This document shows, piece after piece, positions 10,591 to 24,518 of a DNA stretch of 24,518 nucleotides (the first letter of the stretch is position 1; every line of letters starts with the position of its first letter). A program made the position numbers and the translations under genes. A model generated the notes under the pieces. That model was not told where the DNA came from, searched no databases, and was given only the letters and a program-made list of their open reading frames with translations. The DNA is from a virus. Its lineage: Duplodnaviria; Heunggongvirae; Uroviricota; Caudoviricetes. Location of the stretch: the IMG/VR virus record IMGVR_UViG_2778261643_000010; one strand, given 5' to 3'.

Positions 10591-13500
10591 CTATATTTTT
10601 CCGCCTACGCCTTTAAACTTCTCAATAAACGAGACGATTTTCTGGAAAACTGCCTGTTTTTTCGTTTTATATTGCGGATTCAACGGACTAAGTTTTGGTA
10701 ATGTTTCGTTTAATTCTGTGCCATTTTCGGTGGCGTATTCGCGTTTTAAAGACGTGCGAATATAGCGTTTTGCTGCTTCTTCATTGAGGTTTTCTTCTTT
10801 TATCAATGCTTCTGCTTCACGTTGCTGTTCGCGTTGAGCAAACGTAAAGAATGCCTCAATGATACTGGCTTTGTCTGGTAAATCATCCAGGTTCGTTTGC
10901 TGAATAAAATCGACCACCAGGCCCTCTTTCGCCCGGTTTCCCAGGCTTGAACGAATTAAGCGTTTGACCTCTTCGATCATTTCGCCCTTGCCTTTATTTT
11001 GTCTGTTGTGTTCGAAAATCAGTCCAAGGATATAATCCAGGTTTATTTCCTGAGACTTCAGCAAATCGACCTCAAAAACTACATCATCCCAGTCAGTGGT
11101 TGATTTCTCTTTTTTCTCAGCTTCTTTCTCACGGCGCTGCCAGTCGCGAATATCGTTATAGGCAGAACGATAATCCTGAATCTTGCGATCAGCAGGGAGA
11201 CGAATTGTTTGCAATTCAGCGAACTTTTCATCATCCACATAATGTTCTGCTTTGAATTTTTCTACCGCAACAGGATCGCTAAGATCGATTTGTTGCAGGG
11301 CTTTTAGCGTGGCAAATTCATCATAGTTTTGCAGGATGTTCTCGGCACGCAGGTATTCGCCAAACAGTTTAACGAAGTCTTTCTTCTCTTTTTCACTTTC
11401 AATACTGGTAGGGTCAGGGAACCGTTGTTCCAGTTCTGAAACTACTGTCATGAAGCCGCGTTTAGCTTCACCAGTGGCAGCATCAGTAAAGCCTTCCATA
11501 TACTCTGCATAACTCTTTTCTAAAACCACATTTTTGGTATTTTTGTCACCAAACAGCGTTATGGCATCAATGGTTGAGCGTTCCAGATCCCGGAACGTGA
11601 CGATATTACCGAAGGTTTTAGTCGCGTCATAAATGCGGTTGGTGCGGGAGAATGCCTGCATCAGGCCGTGAAAACGCAAGTTTTTATCGACGAATAGCGT
11701 GTTCAATGTTGGAGCGTCGAAGCCGGTTAAAAACATCCCAACGACAATTAACAGATCGATATCCTGATTTTTAACCCGTTGGGCTAAATCACGATAGTAG
11801 TTCTGAAAACCGTTACTGTCGGTACTGAAGTTAGTTTTAAAATAGCTGTTATATTCACGAATTGCAGCGTCGAGAAACTCTTTAGCACTGCTGTCCATTG
11901 CGCTGGTATCAAAAGTTTCATCGGAAATTTCACCAATGGCATTTTGTTCTTCATTAGCGGCAAAGGAGAAGATTGTCGCAACACGTAGTGGTTTATAGGT
12001 AGCAGATTTATAAGCGGCTTCCTCTTGTAACCGTTTAAACGTCGCGTAATAGGCTTTCGCGGCATCCACGCTGCTCACTGCCAGCATGGCATTAAAACCT
12101 TTGGAGCCAGGGAAAGTACGGTGGGTTTTCTGGCGGAAGTTATTCAGGATATATTGCGTAATTTCCTGAATACGCATGGGATGAAGGAACGCCTGCTGAT
12201 TTTCAGCCGCACTCAGTTTTTTCTCGTCAGTTTCTGTCTCTAAAGACTTAAACTGTGGCCGCACATCGTTGTAGTCCACCTTGAATTTAAGCACTTTTTC
12301 ATCACGAATCGCATCGGTAATAACATATGAATGCAATTCACGGCCAAATACGCTGGCGGTCGTTTCTGAGCCTAAGGCGTTTTCCGGGAAAATAGGTGTG
12401 CCGGTAAAACCAAACTGATAATAGCGTTTGAATTTCTTCTTCAGGTTTTTCTGTGCTTCTCCAAACTGGCTGCGGTGACATTCATCAAATATAAACACCA
12501 CTTGCTGATTGTATACAGGCAGGTCGCTTTCTGCTTTCATCAGGTTATTAAGTTTCTGAATAGTGGTGACGATAATTTTGTTATCGTCCTTATCCAGATT
12601 TCGTTTAAGACCTGCGGTATTTTCCGAGCCGTTGACGCTGTCTGGCGAAAAACGCTGATATTCCTTCATGGTCTGGTAATCGAGGTCTTTCCTGTCGACC
12701 ACAAAGAAAACTTTATCAATAAAGTCCAGTTCTGTTGCCAGACGCGCGGCTTTAAAGCTGGTCAGGGTTTTACCGGAACCCGTGGTGTGCCAGATATACC
12801 CACCGCTTTCCGGTTTTGACCAGTTCTTCGCTGTAAAGGAGCTCTTAATTTTCCACAGAATGCGCTCGGTGGCGGCAATCTGGTACGGTCGCATCACCAG
12901 TAGCGTCTGACTACTGTCAAAAACGCTGTAGTTCACCAGAACATTCAGCAGAGTATGTTTCTGGAAAAAGGTAGCGGTAAAATCTTTGAGGTCTTTAATC
13001 AGCGTGTTGTCTGATTTCGCCCAGTTCATGGTGAAGTCAAAACTATTTTTATCGCGCTTTGTGGTGTTGGCAAAGTAACGGGTATCGGTGCCGTTAGAAA
13101 TGACAAACAGTTGCAGATACTTAAACAGGGAATTTTCGCTGTTAAAACTCTCTTTACTGTAACGATGTATCTGGTTGAAAGCCTCACGAATCGCCACGCC
13201 GCGCTTTTTCAGTTCGATTTGCACCAGAGGCAAGCCATTAACCAGGATAGTTACGTCATAACGGTTAGCGTGAGAACCTGCCTGTTCAAACTGCTGGATA
13301 ATCTGCACTTTGTTGCGCATGAGATTCTTTTTATCTATCAGATAGATGTTCTCAAGACGCCCGTCGTCAAAAATAAAGTCGCAAATATAGTCGATATGGA
13401 TTTTACGGGTCTTATCCAGAATGCCATCGCTCGGGTTGTCCAGATACTGCTCCGTGAAACGCCGCCACTCGCTGTCATTAAACACCACACCATTGAGGCT

Positions 13501-13707
13501 CTGAAGCTGTTCCCGAACATTGGACAGCATAGCCGACTGAGATTTTACGGATATAAATTCATAGCCCTGATTCCGCAGGTCCTGAATCAGTTCACGTTCC
13601 AGGTCCGATTCGCTCTGGTAGCTGTCGCCTGTTGGCTCAGCTTTGATGTACTTATCAAGGACGATAAAGTTATTGGATTCAGCAATAGTGTGTGTCTGAT
13701 GAGTCAT
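10591..13707 (-). CDS. hsdR: Type I restriction enzyme R subunit (HsdR), EcoR124-family (Type IC)
   Basis: Walker A motif [11 protein letters not shown] and DEAD-like [10 protein letters not shown] are present. The ORF track begins at 13767, but ATG 13707 ([11 protein letters not shown]) has an AAGGA ribosome-binding site and gives about 1038 aa, the length I recall for EcoR124I HsdR. Confidence 0.9.
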
Positions 13708-13828
13708 AGCGCATCCTTTGTGCCGTCTGGCAAGGGCCGGAAGGGAGTTAAGGGTGACTTCCGGCACGTAAAAAATAGTCTATATACAGACCGGATGTTA
13801 AGGTGGTCCGGTCGGTAGCAATGGTCAA

Positions 13829-15085
13829 TTAATTACTGACAGTTTCAGGTTTCGGGAAACTGAACAGTAAGTCACGATAGTACTCGTATTGTTTCTGGCG
13901 CAACTCGATTTCACGCGGGAGACCTTCGGTGATGGAGTTGGTCAGGGTGTCGAATTTATCGAGCAGAGCAGATATTCGCTCTTGTTTCTGTTTATCAGGC
14001 AATGGCACTGGTAATGTTTTTATAATATCTGCATTCAAGTTACTGACCGACCCGCTATTGATTTTACTTTCCCAATAATTTTTCACCTTTTTTGATGAAA
14101 GATAGTGATACAGATAATCAGCATTTAATTTTTCACCAAAATTGCTGATTGATGCCCATCCATCATGGATAGCTCCGGTTATCCTTAAAATATATGGTCT
14201 GCCAAAGCTCATAGAGTTAGAAATGACGAAATCACCGGGGTTCAAGATTCGCGATTTTTGGGCACCCTCTGCAGTTATTTTTTGTAAGGTTTTGTCAATG
14301 TATTTAGAGCCGGGGATAGTATCTCCGATTTTAATCCATGGGATACCATTTCCTTGTTCAGTAAGATAATTAACAATTGGCCTGGGGGATGCCCCACGTT
14401 GTATTTTGGCTACTTCTCCCAATGCCTTCCACTCAACCTCACCCTCTTTAAAACTCAGCAACTGGTCGCGATAGTAGTTGTACTGTTTTTTACGCATGTT
14501 AAGCTCAGCGGTAAGCTCAGCGGTAAGTGCAGTAAATTTGTCCAGAATCCGAACGATTTCAGACTGGATGGCGAGGGATTTTTCCGGATTATCCGGGCAG
14601 GGAATTGGGATGAGTAGTTTTGACATCAATGCATTTGAGCTTAGATTCGGTTGTGCTCCGCCCCCGGCGAGGATATAAATAGTCTCTGTATTTAACAATA
14701 AAAAATGGTATAAATAATTATTGTTTAGAATATTTTCTTTGGGTATGAATTTTCCAACCCGTTGGTTAAGATAACATTTTGTTCCTTTTTTATAAATTCC
14801 CACTTTTCCTGTAGTGGCACCTGACATTGCAATCAATATATTTCCCATAGATACCTCAAAGGAGGATAAATCTTCCTTGTAATCATTTAGTGAAAAGTAT
14901 TTCACCTCATCTAAGTCAACATTAAATCCATCTATATTTGTGATTCTAACTATCGGTAACCCAGTTTCTTTAAATAAGCTGCTTTTAAATGCAAATCCAT
15001 TTTTAAAATCACAAACATCCTTCAAGGGTTTCCACTCAACCTCAACCCCATCCAGCAATTTTTCCAGATAACTCAACTCGCTCAT
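13829..15085 (-). CDS. hsdS: Type I R-M specificity subunit (HsdS) with two target-recognition domains and a central TAEL-repeat region
   Basis: It has the conserved central block [54 protein letters not shown] and a conserved C-terminal block. The start overlaps the hsdM stop (ATGA). Confidence 0.9.
14501..14536. repeat. Two perfect 12-bp tandem repeats (AAGCTCAGCGGT) plus a degenerate third unit, encoding LTAEL-TAEL in hsdS
   Basis: Direct reading of 14501-14512 and 14513-14524, then the diverged unit AAGTGCAGTAAA. Confidence 0.85.
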
Positions 15086-16638
15086 TTCTGCACCTCGCAG
15101 CCTTCAATTTCAGCCACAATCGCATCAATATCTTTACGCAACTGGTCGATTTTGCTGACCGTGATTTTCAGCTCTGCATTCAACTCAGCGATATCGATAA
15201 TTTCGCGAGTATCTTTCGCTTCAACATAGCTGCTCACCGACAGGTTATAGTCATTAGCAACAACGGTCTCAAACGCGACTGATTTCGCCAGATGAGCAAC
15301 ATCTTCCTTGCTGGCAAATACCTGCATAATCTGTTCGATATGGGCATCGGTCAGGATATTGTTGTTGGTCTCTTTTTTGAATAGTTCGCTGGCGTCAATA
15401 AACTGAACTTTTGTATCTGTTTTATGTTTAGACAACACCAGAATGTTTACGGCAATGGTGGTGCCAAAGAACAGGTTCGGTGCCAGTGAAATCACGGTTT
15501 CGACATAGTTATTATCAACCAGATACTGACGGATTTTCTGCTCCGCGCCGCCACGGTAAAAAATACCCGGGAAGCAAACAATCGCAGCACGACCTTTGGC
15601 AGAAAGATAGTTCAGCGCATGTAGTACAAAGGCGAAGTCAGCTTTTGATTTGGGGGCCAGAACGCCAGCCGGGGCAAAACGTTCATCGTTAATCAGCGTC
15701 GGGTCATCGCTGCCAATCCATTTCACCGAATACGGCGGGTTAGAAACGATGGCATCAAACGGTTTTTCATCTCTGAAGTGTGGTTCAGTCAGCGTATTGC
15801 CCAGCTTGATATCAAACTTGTCGTAGTTGATGTTGTGCAAAAACATGTTCATACGCGCCAGGTTATAGGTCGTATGGTTGATTTCCTGACCAAAAAAACC
15901 TTCTTCGATGATATGGTCATCAAACTGTTTTTTAGCCTGCAACAACAGCGAACCGGAGCCTGCTGCCGGGTCGTAGATTTTGTTAACGTGGGTCTGCCCG
16001 TGCATAGCCAGTTGTGCAATCAGCTTAGAGACGTGCTGCGGTGTAAAGAACTCGCCGCCGGACTTACCGGCATTCGCGGCATAGTTAGAAATCAGGAACT
16101 CATAGGCGTCACCGAACAGATCAATCTGATGTTCGGTGAAGTCACCAAGTTTTAACCCTTCAACCCCTTTCAGAACCGCAGCCAGGCGGGCATTTTTATC
16201 TTTAACGGTGTTACCCAGGCGGTTACTGGTGGTATCGAAATCAGCAAACAAACCTTTGATGTCTGCTTCTGAAGGGTAGCCGTAAGCAGAACTTTCGATA
16301 GCAACGAAGATACTGTTTAAATCTGCATTCAGTCTGTCATTGGTATTTGCTTTCGCAGCTACGTTGCAGAAAAGCTGGCTTGGGTAGATGAAGTAGCCTT
16401 TGGTTTTGATGGCATCGTCTTTAATGTCATCAGTAATTACGCTGTCATCCAGTGCTGCATAACAGATGCTGTCATCATCGGCTTCCATATAGCTGGAAAA
16501 ATTTTCGCTGATAAAACGATAAAAAAGCGCGCCCAGAACGTACTGCTTAAAATCCCATCCATCGACTGAACCCCTGACATCGTTAGCAATTTGCCAGATC
16601 TGGCGATGAAGTTCTGCACGTTGTTGAATACTTGTCAT
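15082..16638 (-). CDS. hsdM: Type I R-M N6-adenine DNA methyltransferase (HsdM)
   Basis: Contains the AdoMet-binding motif [11 protein letters not shown] and the catalytic motif VSNPPYS. Confidence 0.9.
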
Positions 16639-16768
16639 TTTCTTCCACTTATTTCAGGCTTAAGTAATTGGCGGTGATTCTACAGCAACTTTGATGCTTT
16701 AGCAGTTCGGACATTAGGCAACGAATGACCTAATTAGAGCTTTTTGGAAAAGCGGTATTGTCGGTGCG

Positions 16769-16993
16769 ATGATAGCTATGTTTGGGTTCGCGATGGTGCA
16801 ATACAATGACGGTGAAAAGGTAAGCATCCAGTCTGATGGCTGGTATGGGCTGGATAGCCTGCAAAAAACCGCAGATAAAGCCTGTCAGCAATATGGAAAG
16901 TCTAAAGCCGTATATCAGCATAGCGCGAACGCTAATCCACATCTCGCGCCCGGCACGGGCGTTCAGAACACTATTTGGAAATGCGAACCATAA
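16769..16993 (+). CDS. Hypothetical small protein (74 aa)
   Basis: ORF only; no clear ribosome-binding site. It overlaps an antisense ORF (16730-16942), so the coding status is uncertain. Confidence 0.25.
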   Translation: MIAMFGFAMVQYNDGEKVSIQSDGWYGLDSLQKTADKACQQYGKSKAVYQHSANANPHLAPGTGVQNTIWKCEP

Positions 16994-17176
16994 CGCAGGT
17001 TGGCTTTTTACATCTTGGGCCGAATACTGATTCCGCGCTAAGTTGTTTGTGCGGAAGTGACACTGTGGAGCTTAGAAATAGTAAATACTGGTGGGCAACA
17101 AATTGAGCCTTCACACGCTCACCAGCACACACAAAAAATGGTTAAACAGCAAGGGAATTAATATCTCAGCGCGACA

Positions 17177-19839: not shown

Positions 19840-20219
19840 TGAGGCATATATCACCGGAAGAACTTATTGCGCTTCATGATGCGAATATAAACCGCTACGG
19901 CGGCTTGCCGGGAATGTCAGATCCGGGTAGGGCAGAGGCCATTATCGGGAGAGTTCAGGCCAGAGTTGCCTACGAAGAGATCACCGACCTTTTCGAAGTC
20001 TCCGCCACCTACCTGGTGGCTACAGCGAGAGGGCATATATTCAATGATGCCAATAAGCGTACCGCGCTAAACAGTGCGCTGTTATTTCTACGCCGTAACG
20101 GGGTGCAGGTATTTGATTCACCTGAACTGGCAGACCTTACCGTAGGGGCTGCGACCGGAGAGATATCTGTATCTTCTGTCGCCGACACGTTACGTAGATT
20201 GTATGGTTCCGCGGAGTAG
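19839..20219 (+). CDS. doc: Doc toxin (Fic-fold kinase), 126 aa
   Basis: Contains the Fic-type motif [11 protein letters not shown]. Same size and position as P1 Doc. Confidence 0.9.
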
Positions 20220-20223
20220 ATTA

Positions 20224-20403
20224 ATGGCACGTAAATACAACAAATTGTCCCGTGAAGCGTTAAAGATGCTTCTTGATGGCGTGAGTCGCCGCGAGGTAAA
20301 GCAATACCTGGTTGGTAAGCAAATTGGTGCCAGGACCGCTATTGCTGTGTTATGCCGTCAGGAAATGGTTGTGCTTAAACAGAGAATGCCGGGCAGCAGA
20401 TAA
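20224..20403 (+). CDS. Small basic hypothetical protein (60 aa), in the position of the P1 post-doc gene
   Basis: ORF with GCGGAG upstream of the ATG. Confidence 0.4.
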   Translation: MARKYNKLSREALKMLLDGVSRREVKQYLVGKQIGARTAIAVLCRQEMVVLKQRMPGSR

Positions 20404-20430
20404 AGCCCAATCAGTGATTAAAGGTGTGAT

Positions 20431-21474
20431 GTGAAAGCCGTAATTACTCCATTTGTACAGAAAGAGCTTGGCCTCGCCACGTTCAAAGTGGACCAGGAGG
20501 TCAGAAAGCTGGTGGAGGCTGGCCGTAAATTTATTATGGAGCCGGTGCCGCGTGAGTTAATCGAGCACATGGACGACGGCCTCGTTGTTTCCGAGCAAAC
20601 TATGGCAACAAATGAGGCGTTGCAGCCGTTTTTTAACAGCGATGAACTGTTTCGCCGTATTGGTGGAATTGACTCGCTGGTGGCGTGGTTGCGCAGGAAA
20701 GAGGGGCAATGCCAGGCCGCAGATCGTAGTTGGTGTGACAACCATATTGTCCACGCTGAACGAGACAATAGCGCGGTGTTGTTGTGCTGGCATCACGATA
20801 ACCATTACCGGATGCGTGGTTTTAATGAGCTGAAAGAAACGCTGCATAATAATCGCGTTAACTGGATACTGGATGTCGCCCGTCAGGAAATGGGGCTTTC
20901 AGATGGCCATGATTTAAGTATTCAGGAACTGTGCTGGTGGGCTTTCATGCGCAACATGATGCACCTGATGCCGGAAGAAGTCTGCCGCATATCAATAAAT
21001 AAGATGAAGGCTACTCCGCAGGATAGCGGACCTCTGAAAGAGGCGGATATTCGCCCGTATGACGATCGCGCTATAGCATATGTTCAGATGATGGAAGAAC
21101 GCGCCGCGCCGATGCGTGCAAAAGTATGTCCTGTGGATGTTGACTCCGACCCAGGTATGGCGCATTTCAAAATACCAAAACTTCAATCGCTAAAATTACC
21201 TGAGTACATGGACTTTGTTGCTTCCCGTCCATGCTGTGGCTGTGGAGCTGCGGGAGCTGGCGCTCACATTACGCCTTATATCGTTCGTCATAGTCGATTA
21301 TGCGCGCATGACATTTATGCTATTCCTCTGTGCCAGTCATGCCAGCGTGATATTGAGCGTGACCGCGATAATTGGGAGAAAACACACGGTAGGCTGGCGA
21401 TGCATCAACGATTGTTCTTTGATTACGCGCTTGGAGTCGGCGCTATCACAAGTCACTCGTCGAGCGTTAGATAA
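20431..21474 (+). CDS. Cysteine-rich hypothetical protein (347 aa), in the position of the P1 post-doc genes
   Basis: GTG start with AAGGTG ribosome-binding site. Contains [12 protein letters not shown] and CQSCQ motifs. Confidence 0.5.
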
Positions 21475-21475
21475 A

Positions 21476-21492
21476 ATTGCTCTAATGTATTG
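21476..21492 (+). promoter_or_regulatory. C1 operator-like 17-mer ATTGCTCTAATGTATTG overlapping a candidate promoter (TTGCTA -35, TATTAT -10)
   Basis: Matches the consensus at 14 of 17 positions and sits upstream of the putative lpa. Confidence 0.45.
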
Positions 21493-21562
21493 CTATTTAT
21501 TTAATCGAGGGTATTATATTCCACGTTGATTAGTTGACATGGGCTAATCAGTAGGTGACAGG

Positions 21563-22015
21563 ATGTTACTTAACTGGCAGGGACGCCACTTCATGGAAAT
21601 AAATCACTCACGAATAACATCGTACGAGATTGCGGATTACATGATCCGCACTAAATCTCTTCTATCAGCGAAAGAACTCGCAGCAATTCTTGAAAAGGAA
21701 TACCCGCATCTGGATGTCGATAAGCGCGATGTTTATCTGCGCTTAAAGGCTATCGCTGTGTCTAAGTATTCGTCTGTTTTGATTGATGACAGTACACGCC
21801 CACGTAGATTTCAGATCCACTCTCTGAATCCTGAATTCTTTCGCCGTAGCCGCGCTCCGCGCCGGTTTGATGAAAAACTCCAGAACGAACTCTATATGAC
21901 GCAGGACGAAAAGGAACGCCGGGAGCACCAGCCTTGGGTAATGGCGCGTCAACTTTTCAATAAGGTGGCCCGTCAGCACCGTCATTACGGTAATGCCACA
22001 TCCGCACGTATCTGA
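21563..22015 (+). CDS. lpa: Putative late promoter activator (assigned by synteny only); start may be ATG at 21593
   Basis: A 150-aa ORF between the doc-distal genes and pacA, which is where P1 carries lpa as I recall. No motif-level support. Confidence 0.45.
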   Translation: MLLNWQGRHFMEINHSRITSYEIADYMIRTKSLLSAKELAAILEKEYPHLDVDKRDVYLRLKAIAVSKYSSVLIDDSTRPRRFQIHSLNPEFFRRSRAPRRFDEKLQNELYMTQDEKERREHQPWVMARQLFNKVARQHRHYGNATSARI

Positions 22016-22100
22016 TTGATTGCTTGCCCGTTCCGGGCCTTTTGACATGTGACTTTCGTTACCCTCGCGTCAAAAAGAGTTTTTACGAAAGGAAGCATAA

Positions 22101-23294: not shown

Positions 23295-24493
23295 TGGCCA
23301 GAAGTTGCGTAACGGATCCACGTTGGCGCGAGCTGGTGGCGCTATATCGTTATGACTGGATTGCTGCCGCTGATGTTTTGTTCGGCAAAACACCTACCTG
23401 GCAGCAGGATCTGATTATTGAGTCTGTGCAGGAACAGGGTAGCAAGACATCTGTTTCGTCTGGTCACGGTACCGGGAAATCAGACATGACTTCTATCATG
23501 ATCATGTTGTTCATAATCATGTATCCCGGTGCCCGCGCCATTATCGTTGCGAACAAAATTCAGCAGGTAATGACCGGTATATTCAAGTACATCAAGATAA
23601 ACTGGGCTACTGCCACCAGCCGTTTTCCATGGCTTGCTGATTATTTTGTTCTGACAGAAACCGCTTTCTATGAGGTTACTGGTAAAGGTGTATGGACTGT
23701 AGTACCGAAGGGCTTTCGTCTGGGAAGTGAAGAAGCTCTCGCCGGTGAACACGCAGATCATCTTCTGTATATTATCGATGAAGCCTCCGGTGTCAGTGAT
23801 AGAGCTTTCGGTATCATCACCGGTGCTCTTACCGGACAGGATAACCGCATCTTATTACTGTCACAGCCTACACGCCCAAGCGGCTATTTCTACGATACTC
23901 ACCATAAACTGGCCAAGCGTCCTGGTAACCCAGATGGCGTTTATACGGCGATCACGCTTAACAGTGAGGAATCACCGCTGGTAACGCCAGAATTTATCAA
24001 AATGAAGCTGGCGGAGTACGGCGGGCGTGATAACCCTATGTACATGATTAAGGTGCGTGGCCTATTCCCTAAATCACAGGACGGCTTCCTTCTTGGACGT
24101 GATGAGGTTGAACGTGCAACGCGGCGGAAAGTTAAGATTGCCAAAGGATGGGGCTGGCTTGCATGTGTGGACGTTGCTGGTGGTACGGGACGGGATAAGT
24201 CAGTTATCAATATCATGATGGTGTCCGGCCAGCGAAATAAACGCCGTGTAATCAACTATCGAATGCTGGAATACACAGACGTTACAGAAACGCAGCTTGC
24301 CGCCAAAATTTTCGCAGAATGTAATCCTGAGCGATTCCCAAATATCACCATAGCGATAGACGGCGATGGCCTGGGTAAAGCAACGGCGGATCTGATGTAC
24401 GAGTATTATGGTATTACCGTACAGCGTATACGCTGGGGTAAAAAGATGCATAGCCCTGATGAATCCCCTAATGATTTTTATCAAAATCATTAA
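23294..24493 (+). pseudogene. pacB: Terminase large subunit PacB, truncated by IS10; native sequence ends at 24455 and the last 12 codons plus stop are IS-derived
   Basis: Walker A GHGTGKS and Walker [10 protein letters not shown] are present. The coding sequence runs into CTGATGAATCCCC at 24456. TAATG overlap with pacA. Confidence 0.8.
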
Positions 24494-24518
24494 GTTAAGG
24501 TAGATACACATCTTGTCA
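24456..24518 (+). mobile_element. IS10 outside-end fragment; terminus at 24456, element body extends rightward out of the window
   Basis: Begins CTGATGAATCCCCTAATGATTTTTATCAAAATCATTAAGTTAAGGTAGATACACATCTTGTCA, which is the IS10 outside end as I recall it. Confidence 0.8.

Follow-up and report, generated by a model that had tools for sequence, protein, structure and literature searches.

In bacteriophage P1, the C1 repressor binds 22 operators with the consensus ATTGCTCTAATAAATTT, and expression of the late activator Lpa is under C1 control (PMC8546580). The closest described system to the locus reported here is the P1 operator-promoter pair Olpa/Plpa (Op94/Pr94; AF234172 89904-89945, M95666 3981-4030), which has pdcB upstream and the late promoter LPpac, pacA and pacB downstream. 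In the P1 genome record AF234172, the operator is listed as [quoted passage not shown] and the promoter as “sigma 70 promoter Plpa; corresponds to former P94.” The 1992 P1 record M95666 labels the same operator bases [quoted passage not shown] and it also reports “Transcriptional initiation site of Pr94, G at 4030.” In P7, the corresponding site (AF503408 96763-96779) is annotated as “Op(lpa); regulates expression of lpa, pacA and pacB.”

A comparable logic operates in the lambda-type switch, in which late genes are positively controlled and their activator is kept off by the lysogeny repressor (PMC10695390). The layout differs, however: Q, the lambda-type activator, is expressed from the PR transcript, which CI represses, whereas the P1 activator gene is served by a dedicated repressor-controlled promoter. 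Furthermore, Lpa activates promoters through a -22 box and is not an antiterminator, and there is no sequence or protein homology between the P1 system and the lambda-type system.

The window, by which we mean the whole stretch of 24,518 nucleotides analyzed here, contains the P1 arrangement with the same flanking genes (Table 1). Positions 21476-21562 read ATTGCTCTAATGTATTGCTATTTATTTAATCGAGGGTATTAT..., followed by the leader as far as the ATG at 21563. This region almost certainly comprises the operator, promoter and leader of lpa (gene 10), the late-activator gene of P1, under the control of C1; binding of C1, repression and the transcription start site are predicted here from homology and from the literature on P1. 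Across positions 21300-22100, the window has 98.5% identity to P1 and 98.6% identity to P7, and the range over P1, P7, SJ46, RCS47 and other punaviruses is 98.4-99.1%. The operator, -35 hexamer, -10 hexamer, start site, ribosome-binding site and Lpa sequence are all identical to those of P1. Aligning the lpa upstream region to that of P1 in a four-way alignment, we found that the sole difference from P1 and P7 within 21476-21562 is A21499, which reads C in both phages and is located in the promoter spacer; the A allele is the minority among the 88 loci tabulated. The P7 17-mer and P7 Lpa are likewise identical to those of the window, and the P7 promoter is the same but for A21499.

Table 1. 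Features of the window, with coordinates, strand and the basis of each assignment.
Feature	Position	Strand	Basis
O26/Op82, further C1 operator	4560-4576	-	identical to P1
OpmgRa/Op86a, further C1 operator	8184-8200	+	identical to P1
OpmgRb/Op86b, further C1 operator	8233-8249	-	identical to P1
OpmgT/Op88, further C1 operator	10326-10342	+	one change from P1
hsdR, type I restriction-modification	10591-13767	-	Pfam
hsdS, type I restriction-modification	13829-15085	-	Pfam
hsdM, type I restriction-modification	15082-16638	-	Pfam
pdcB (DUF968), gene upstream of the operator	20431-21474	+	ORF list, P1 annotation, Pfam DUF968
C1 repressor operator Olpa (former Op94), 17 bp, asymmetric, ATTGCTCTAATGTATTG	21476-21492	+	base-for-base equal to the annotated P1/P7 operator
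-35 hexamer TTGCTA of Plpa (Pr94)	21490-21495	+	promoter scan; annotated minus_35_signal in P1
Spacer, 16 bp	21496-21511	+	alignment with P1
-10 hexamer TATTAT of Plpa	21512-21517	+	annotated minus_10_signal in P1
Transcription start, G	21525	+	homology to the mapped start of P1
Predicted 5'-terminal hairpin of lpa mRNA, 10-bp stem, ~9-nt loop	21525-21553	+	covariation; starts at the mapped +1
Ribosome-binding site for ATG 21563	21550-21556	+	M95666 ribosome_binding_site 4055-4061
lpa (gene 10), late promoter-activating protein, 150 aa as annotated	21563-22015	+	150/150 aa identical to P1 Lpa
LPpac, late promoter driving pacA and pacB: -22 box ATGTGACTT, -10 TACCCT	22047-22065	+	annotated in P1/P7

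An earlier note on this DNA had described an operator-like site overlapping a sigma70-like TTGCTA hexamer. This description was confirmed: the bases are those of P1 Olpa and of the annotated Plpa -35, and the overlap is 3 bp, with the first three bases of TTGCTA inside the operator. Olpa matches the C1 consensus at 14 of 17 positions; bases 1-11 are exact, and the mismatches are at positions 12, 13 and 17. By comparison, the annotated P1 C1 operators of the region have 0 to 7 mismatches to ATTGCTCTAATAAATTT. At a threshold of ≤3 mismatches, we identified five consensus matches in the window, compared to 0.09 expected from shuffled sequences (none of 100 shuffles reached five). Besides Olpa, these matches are the P1 operators O26, OpmgRa, OpmgRb and OpmgT (Table 1). 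Olpa has three properties of the C1 operators of P1 and P7, namely a match to the consensus, an annotated P1 counterpart and overlap with the -35 hexamer of a controlled promoter. On its other side, a single nucleotide separates the operator from the end of the pdcB stop codon.

Other monovalent C1 operators of P1 that overlap sigma-70 promoters, for example OpmgT/P1pmgT (Op88), OpmgRa/PpmgR (Op86a) and Obana/P1ban (Op72a), resemble Olpa/Plpa in having a 17-bp asymmetric consensus with a ATTGCTCTAAT core and overlap with the -35 hexamer. The position of the overlap varies: the -35 of Plpa starts at operator position 15, so that most of Olpa lies upstream of the promoter, whereas the -35 hexamers of PpmgR and P1ban are inside the operator core. 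The co-repressor Bof, also called Lxc, strengthens C1 binding in P1, and Lehnherr and colleagues reportedly found in 1992 that complete repression of Pr94 requires both C1 and Bof. Its three mismatches to the consensus (positions 12, 13 and 17) would be in keeping with Olpa being a weaker site that benefits from Bof.

For the promoter, the earlier note had placed a TATTAT hexamer 16-17 bp after TTGCTA. Both the hexamer and the 16-bp spacing hold, and the 17-bp alternative does not. AF234172 annotates exactly these hexamers as those of Plpa, and M95666 gives the same pair. The initiating G of M95666 corresponds to G21525, the eighth base past the -10 with 7 nt between (position transferred by homology). 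TTGCTA-16-TATTAT has the form expected of sigma-70 promoters, in which the hexamers are separated by 16-18 bp; however, on its own this is not above chance, as the Plpa hexamers score 9/12 and a 2-kb region contained three promoter-like sites versus 2.6 expected from shuffles. The promoter call consequently requires outside support, which it receives from identity to the annotated, transcript-mapped P1 promoter and from conservation in diverged relatives. On the minus strand, a candidate promoter ATGTCA-16-TATAAT (21540 to 21513) scores 10/12, higher than Plpa, and shares its -10 region. This antisense candidate is probably a chance match, since its -35 is located in the loop of a predicted hairpin and is not conserved beyond the P1 clade.

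To examine conservation, we gathered diverged lpa loci via protein search and contig look-ups. This yielded 11 diverged lineages with Lpa sequences 67-83% identical, comprising Cronobacter phage JK004 and Salmonella, Klebsiella and metagenome contigs. A scan of genome contigs gave three loci only, and a scan of IMG/VR gave 80 near-identical loci, which are usable only for population variation. The diverged loci all have a DUF968/pdcB gene upstream, and nearly all have a pacA-like gene downstream. Averaged over pairs of the 11 lineages, identity reaches 89.5% in the operator, 97% in the -35 (TTGCTA in 10 lineages and TTGCCA in one) and 93% in the -10 (either TATTAT or TATCAT throughout), compared to 62% in the spacer and 70% in the 8 bases past the -10. 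Of the 12 sequences tabulated, 11 have a 16-bp spacer and one has a 17-bp spacer. The overlap of operator and -35 is common to all 11 diverged lineages. Polymorphism among the 88 close relatives clusters in the spacer and directly upstream of +1. A conserved operator, -35, -10 and spacing around a diverging spacer is the footprint that would be expected of a functional operator-promoter.

These comparisons bear on whether the 17-mer and hexamers could have arisen by chance in AT-rich intergenic sequence, with no regulatory function. Hexamers that reach only 9/12, promoter-like sites at the shuffled frequency and a 17-mer with three consensus mismatches could all be read in that way; however, such a reading would have to account for identity to P1 Op94/Pr94 as annotated, including a mapped start, for operator-quality matches far above expectation (5 versus 0.09) and for the conservation of operator, -35, -10 and spacing over 11 lineages while the spacer diverges. 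We consider it barely credible, and these observations effectively refute it already. A different proposal accepts the operator and assigns C1 bound at Olpa mainly, or additionally, the role of a roadblock to read-through from the phd-doc-pdcA-pdcB operon, which is expressed in lysogens. The operator begins 2 nt past the pdcB stop codon, and no plus-strand intrinsic terminator was predicted within 20400-21560. Similarly, none was predicted between doc/pdcA/pdcB and the lpa operator (20219-21475); the only plus-strand terminator candidate upstream is a weak one within doc, at 20063-20078. Given the lack of a predicted plus-strand terminator, read-through into lpa is possible and a C1 roadblock is a minor possibility. 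Against a main role of this kind, the overlap of operator and -35 in every lineage is the classical geometry of occlusion, and the P1 annotation assigns the operator to control of Plpa. We regard the roadblock as quite unlikely, although it and promoter occlusion are compatible with each other.

The ends of the window raise another question, namely whether Olpa/Plpa could be a relic here, with c1 and lxc lost and Plpa constitutively open rather than part of a switch. Positions 1-59 and 24457-24518 are inverted copies of the terminus of the IS4-family element IS10/ISVsa5, which is also found in Tn10 of plasmid R100, so the P1 segment is bounded by IS terminal repeats. P1 homology stops at 24459 inside pacB, which is cut there by the IS end to 399 aa (494 aa in P1), and no complete E. 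coli genome and no PLSDB plasmid spans the pacB/IS junction. The c1 gene, which in P1 is located directly past pacB, is not in the 24,518-nt window. Because pacB is cut and c1 is beyond the window, the circuit may be incomplete in the source. However, positions 59-24462 match an apparently intact 99.9-kb P1-like plasmid of E. coli at 100% identity, which means that any disruption must be recent, and IS ends at the edges are explained equally well by contig breaks at repeated IS copies, with c1 and the remainder of the prophage on other contigs. The simplest reading is that the window is a draft contig whose ends fall at IS copies that had inserted into a P1-like plasmid, and we consider a relic unlikely. 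The preferred interpretation is an ordinary P1-type operator-promoter in which C1 would act by occlusion. Elsewhere in the window, a ~6.6-kb segment (10516-17119) without P1 counterpart is present in place of pmgT-pmgV and carries the type I restriction-modification locus; together with A21499 and the IS10-type bounds, this replacement distinguishes the window from P1.

The gene downstream of the promoter was identified as lpa. In addition to its identity with P1 gp10, the protein matches the Pfam family BPP1_LPA (PF25716) with 193 bits (cutoff 35) over residues 15-145, placing it in the Lpa family by both profile and homology; the possibility that this open reading frame encodes something other than Lpa is thereby contradicted. 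A sequence search of the PDB with Lpa identified no solved relative. The earlier note had further suggested that the gene is repressor-controlled, following the logic of P1 early-to-late switching. P1 and P7 annotations and published work on C1 (PMC8546580) agree with this suggestion, which would extend to the window by homology, and a constitutive promoter is at odds with the P1 annotation of Plpa as repressor-controlled. LPpac, with coordinates transferred from annotation using an offset of 68428, begins 32 bp downstream of lpa.

In one relative, locus L096 (1153-1853; Lpa 83% identical), lpa is followed by a gene for a 622-aa ANT/KilAC-type antirepressor, not by pacA, and an Lpa fragment and a KilAC domain are joined in several database proteins (with L096: P0032, P0039 and P0042). 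Lpa fragments with 68-91% identity also occur in two records labelled as Firmicutes, L008 (a MAG assigned to Bacillota) and P0022 (Bacillus sp.); these are probably the result of contamination or mis-binning of enterobacterial P1-like DNA.

Between the start site and the gene, the lpa leader is predicted to form a 5'-terminal hairpin that begins at the mapped +1 and is without annotation in P1. In the 11-lineage alignment, compensatory double changes were seen at 9 of its 10 pairs, and pairing holds in 93.9% of cells. Control registers obtained by sliding the structure were 17-50% paired, and none of 500 shuffles reached the observed values. One lineage (L097) has a wholly different stem sequence in the same place. 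The minimum free energy of the window's lpa leader is -21.6 kcal/mol (z = -2.3). At the DNA level, no inverted repeat of ≥8 bp was found at the hairpin; 7 bp are exactly complementary, and the other stem pairs are G-U. The need for G-U pairs favors an RNA structure over a DNA palindrome. An Rfam scan of 21300-21800 gave no match at E ≤ 1. Certain stem-loops at the 5' terminus are known to protect E. coli mRNAs from 5'-end-dependent decay, and by analogy we suggest that the first hairpin may stabilize lpa mRNA.

Downstream of this hairpin is a nearly invariant block, AGTGACAGGA(T/C/A/-)GTTRCTT...CTGGCAGGGACGCC, which includes the annotated start codon ATG 21563. The block forms two smaller predicted hairpins, for which the support consists of one-sided changes or invariant pairs only. 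One of them would bury ATG 21563 together with its ribosome-binding site, and the other would show AGGGA in its loop. The annotated ribosome-binding site, which is inside the stem of predicted hairpin 2, is itself variable, as G21554 reads A in 9 of the 11 lineages. Within the leader, the sequence ATGTTACTT (21563-21571) is similar to the LPhot and LPpac -22 boxes, and we considered it as a site of Lpa autoregulation. This candidate was rejected because AAGTNACTT occurs 10 times at ≤1 mismatch, compared to 8.9 expected, and because the leader copy has no -10 following it.

The comparison of lineages also bears on where Lpa translation starts. The annotated ATG 21563 is lost in 7 of the 11 lineages, in which it is replaced by ACG or AAG or disrupted by a 1-nt deletion, whereas ATG 21593 (Met11) is invariant over all 11. 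Two lineages (L092 and L098) have no in-frame start upstream of the ATG equivalent to 21593. A Shine-Dalgarno candidate, AGGGA (21579-21583), is located 9 nt before ATG 21593. Because ATG 21563 is not conserved, ATG 21593 is invariant and the Pfam model begins at residue 15, the conserved start of Lpa is probably Met11, with AGGGA as its Shine-Dalgarno sequence, and the annotated start at ATG 21563 may be incorrect. Taken as one proposal, a conserved, unannotated leader hairpin acting in mRNA stability or Lpa timing combined with a 140-aa Lpa starting at Met11 is a tentative reading, to which we give somewhat less than an even chance. If true, the leader would be a post-transcriptional layer on the P1 early-to-late switch, and the Lpa start would be corrected.

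With C1 and Lpa acting as described in P1, the locus would operate as follows. In a lysogen, C1 bound at Olpa would block RNA polymerase from the -35 and from the promoter DNA upstream of it, and Lpa would not be made. When C1 is inactivated or absent, as in early infection or upon induction, host sigma-70 RNA polymerase would start at approximately G21525, leading to production of Lpa. Lpa would then activate late promoters that have a -10 plus a -22 box, such as LPpac. In this scheme, the sequence identity and the conserved geometry come from the present analysis, and the steps involving C1 and Lpa are taken from P1 annotation and literature.

In textbook accounts, Olpa/Plpa is what couples the P1 immunity repressor to the expression of late genes. 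The element has been described before and carries GenBank annotation, and its recognition here is correct but ordinary, since a characterized P1 switch is present unchanged in a P1-like plasmid prophage; it would only confirm that the canonical circuit is kept there. The geometry of operator, -35 and -10 is conserved over P1-like elements of Escherichia, Salmonella, Klebsiella and Cronobacter. What is possibly new is limited to the leader hairpin and the question of the start codon, which are of specialist interest. Together, the hairpin and the non-conserved ATG point to a small revision of the lpa annotation and to a post-transcriptional element that can be tested.
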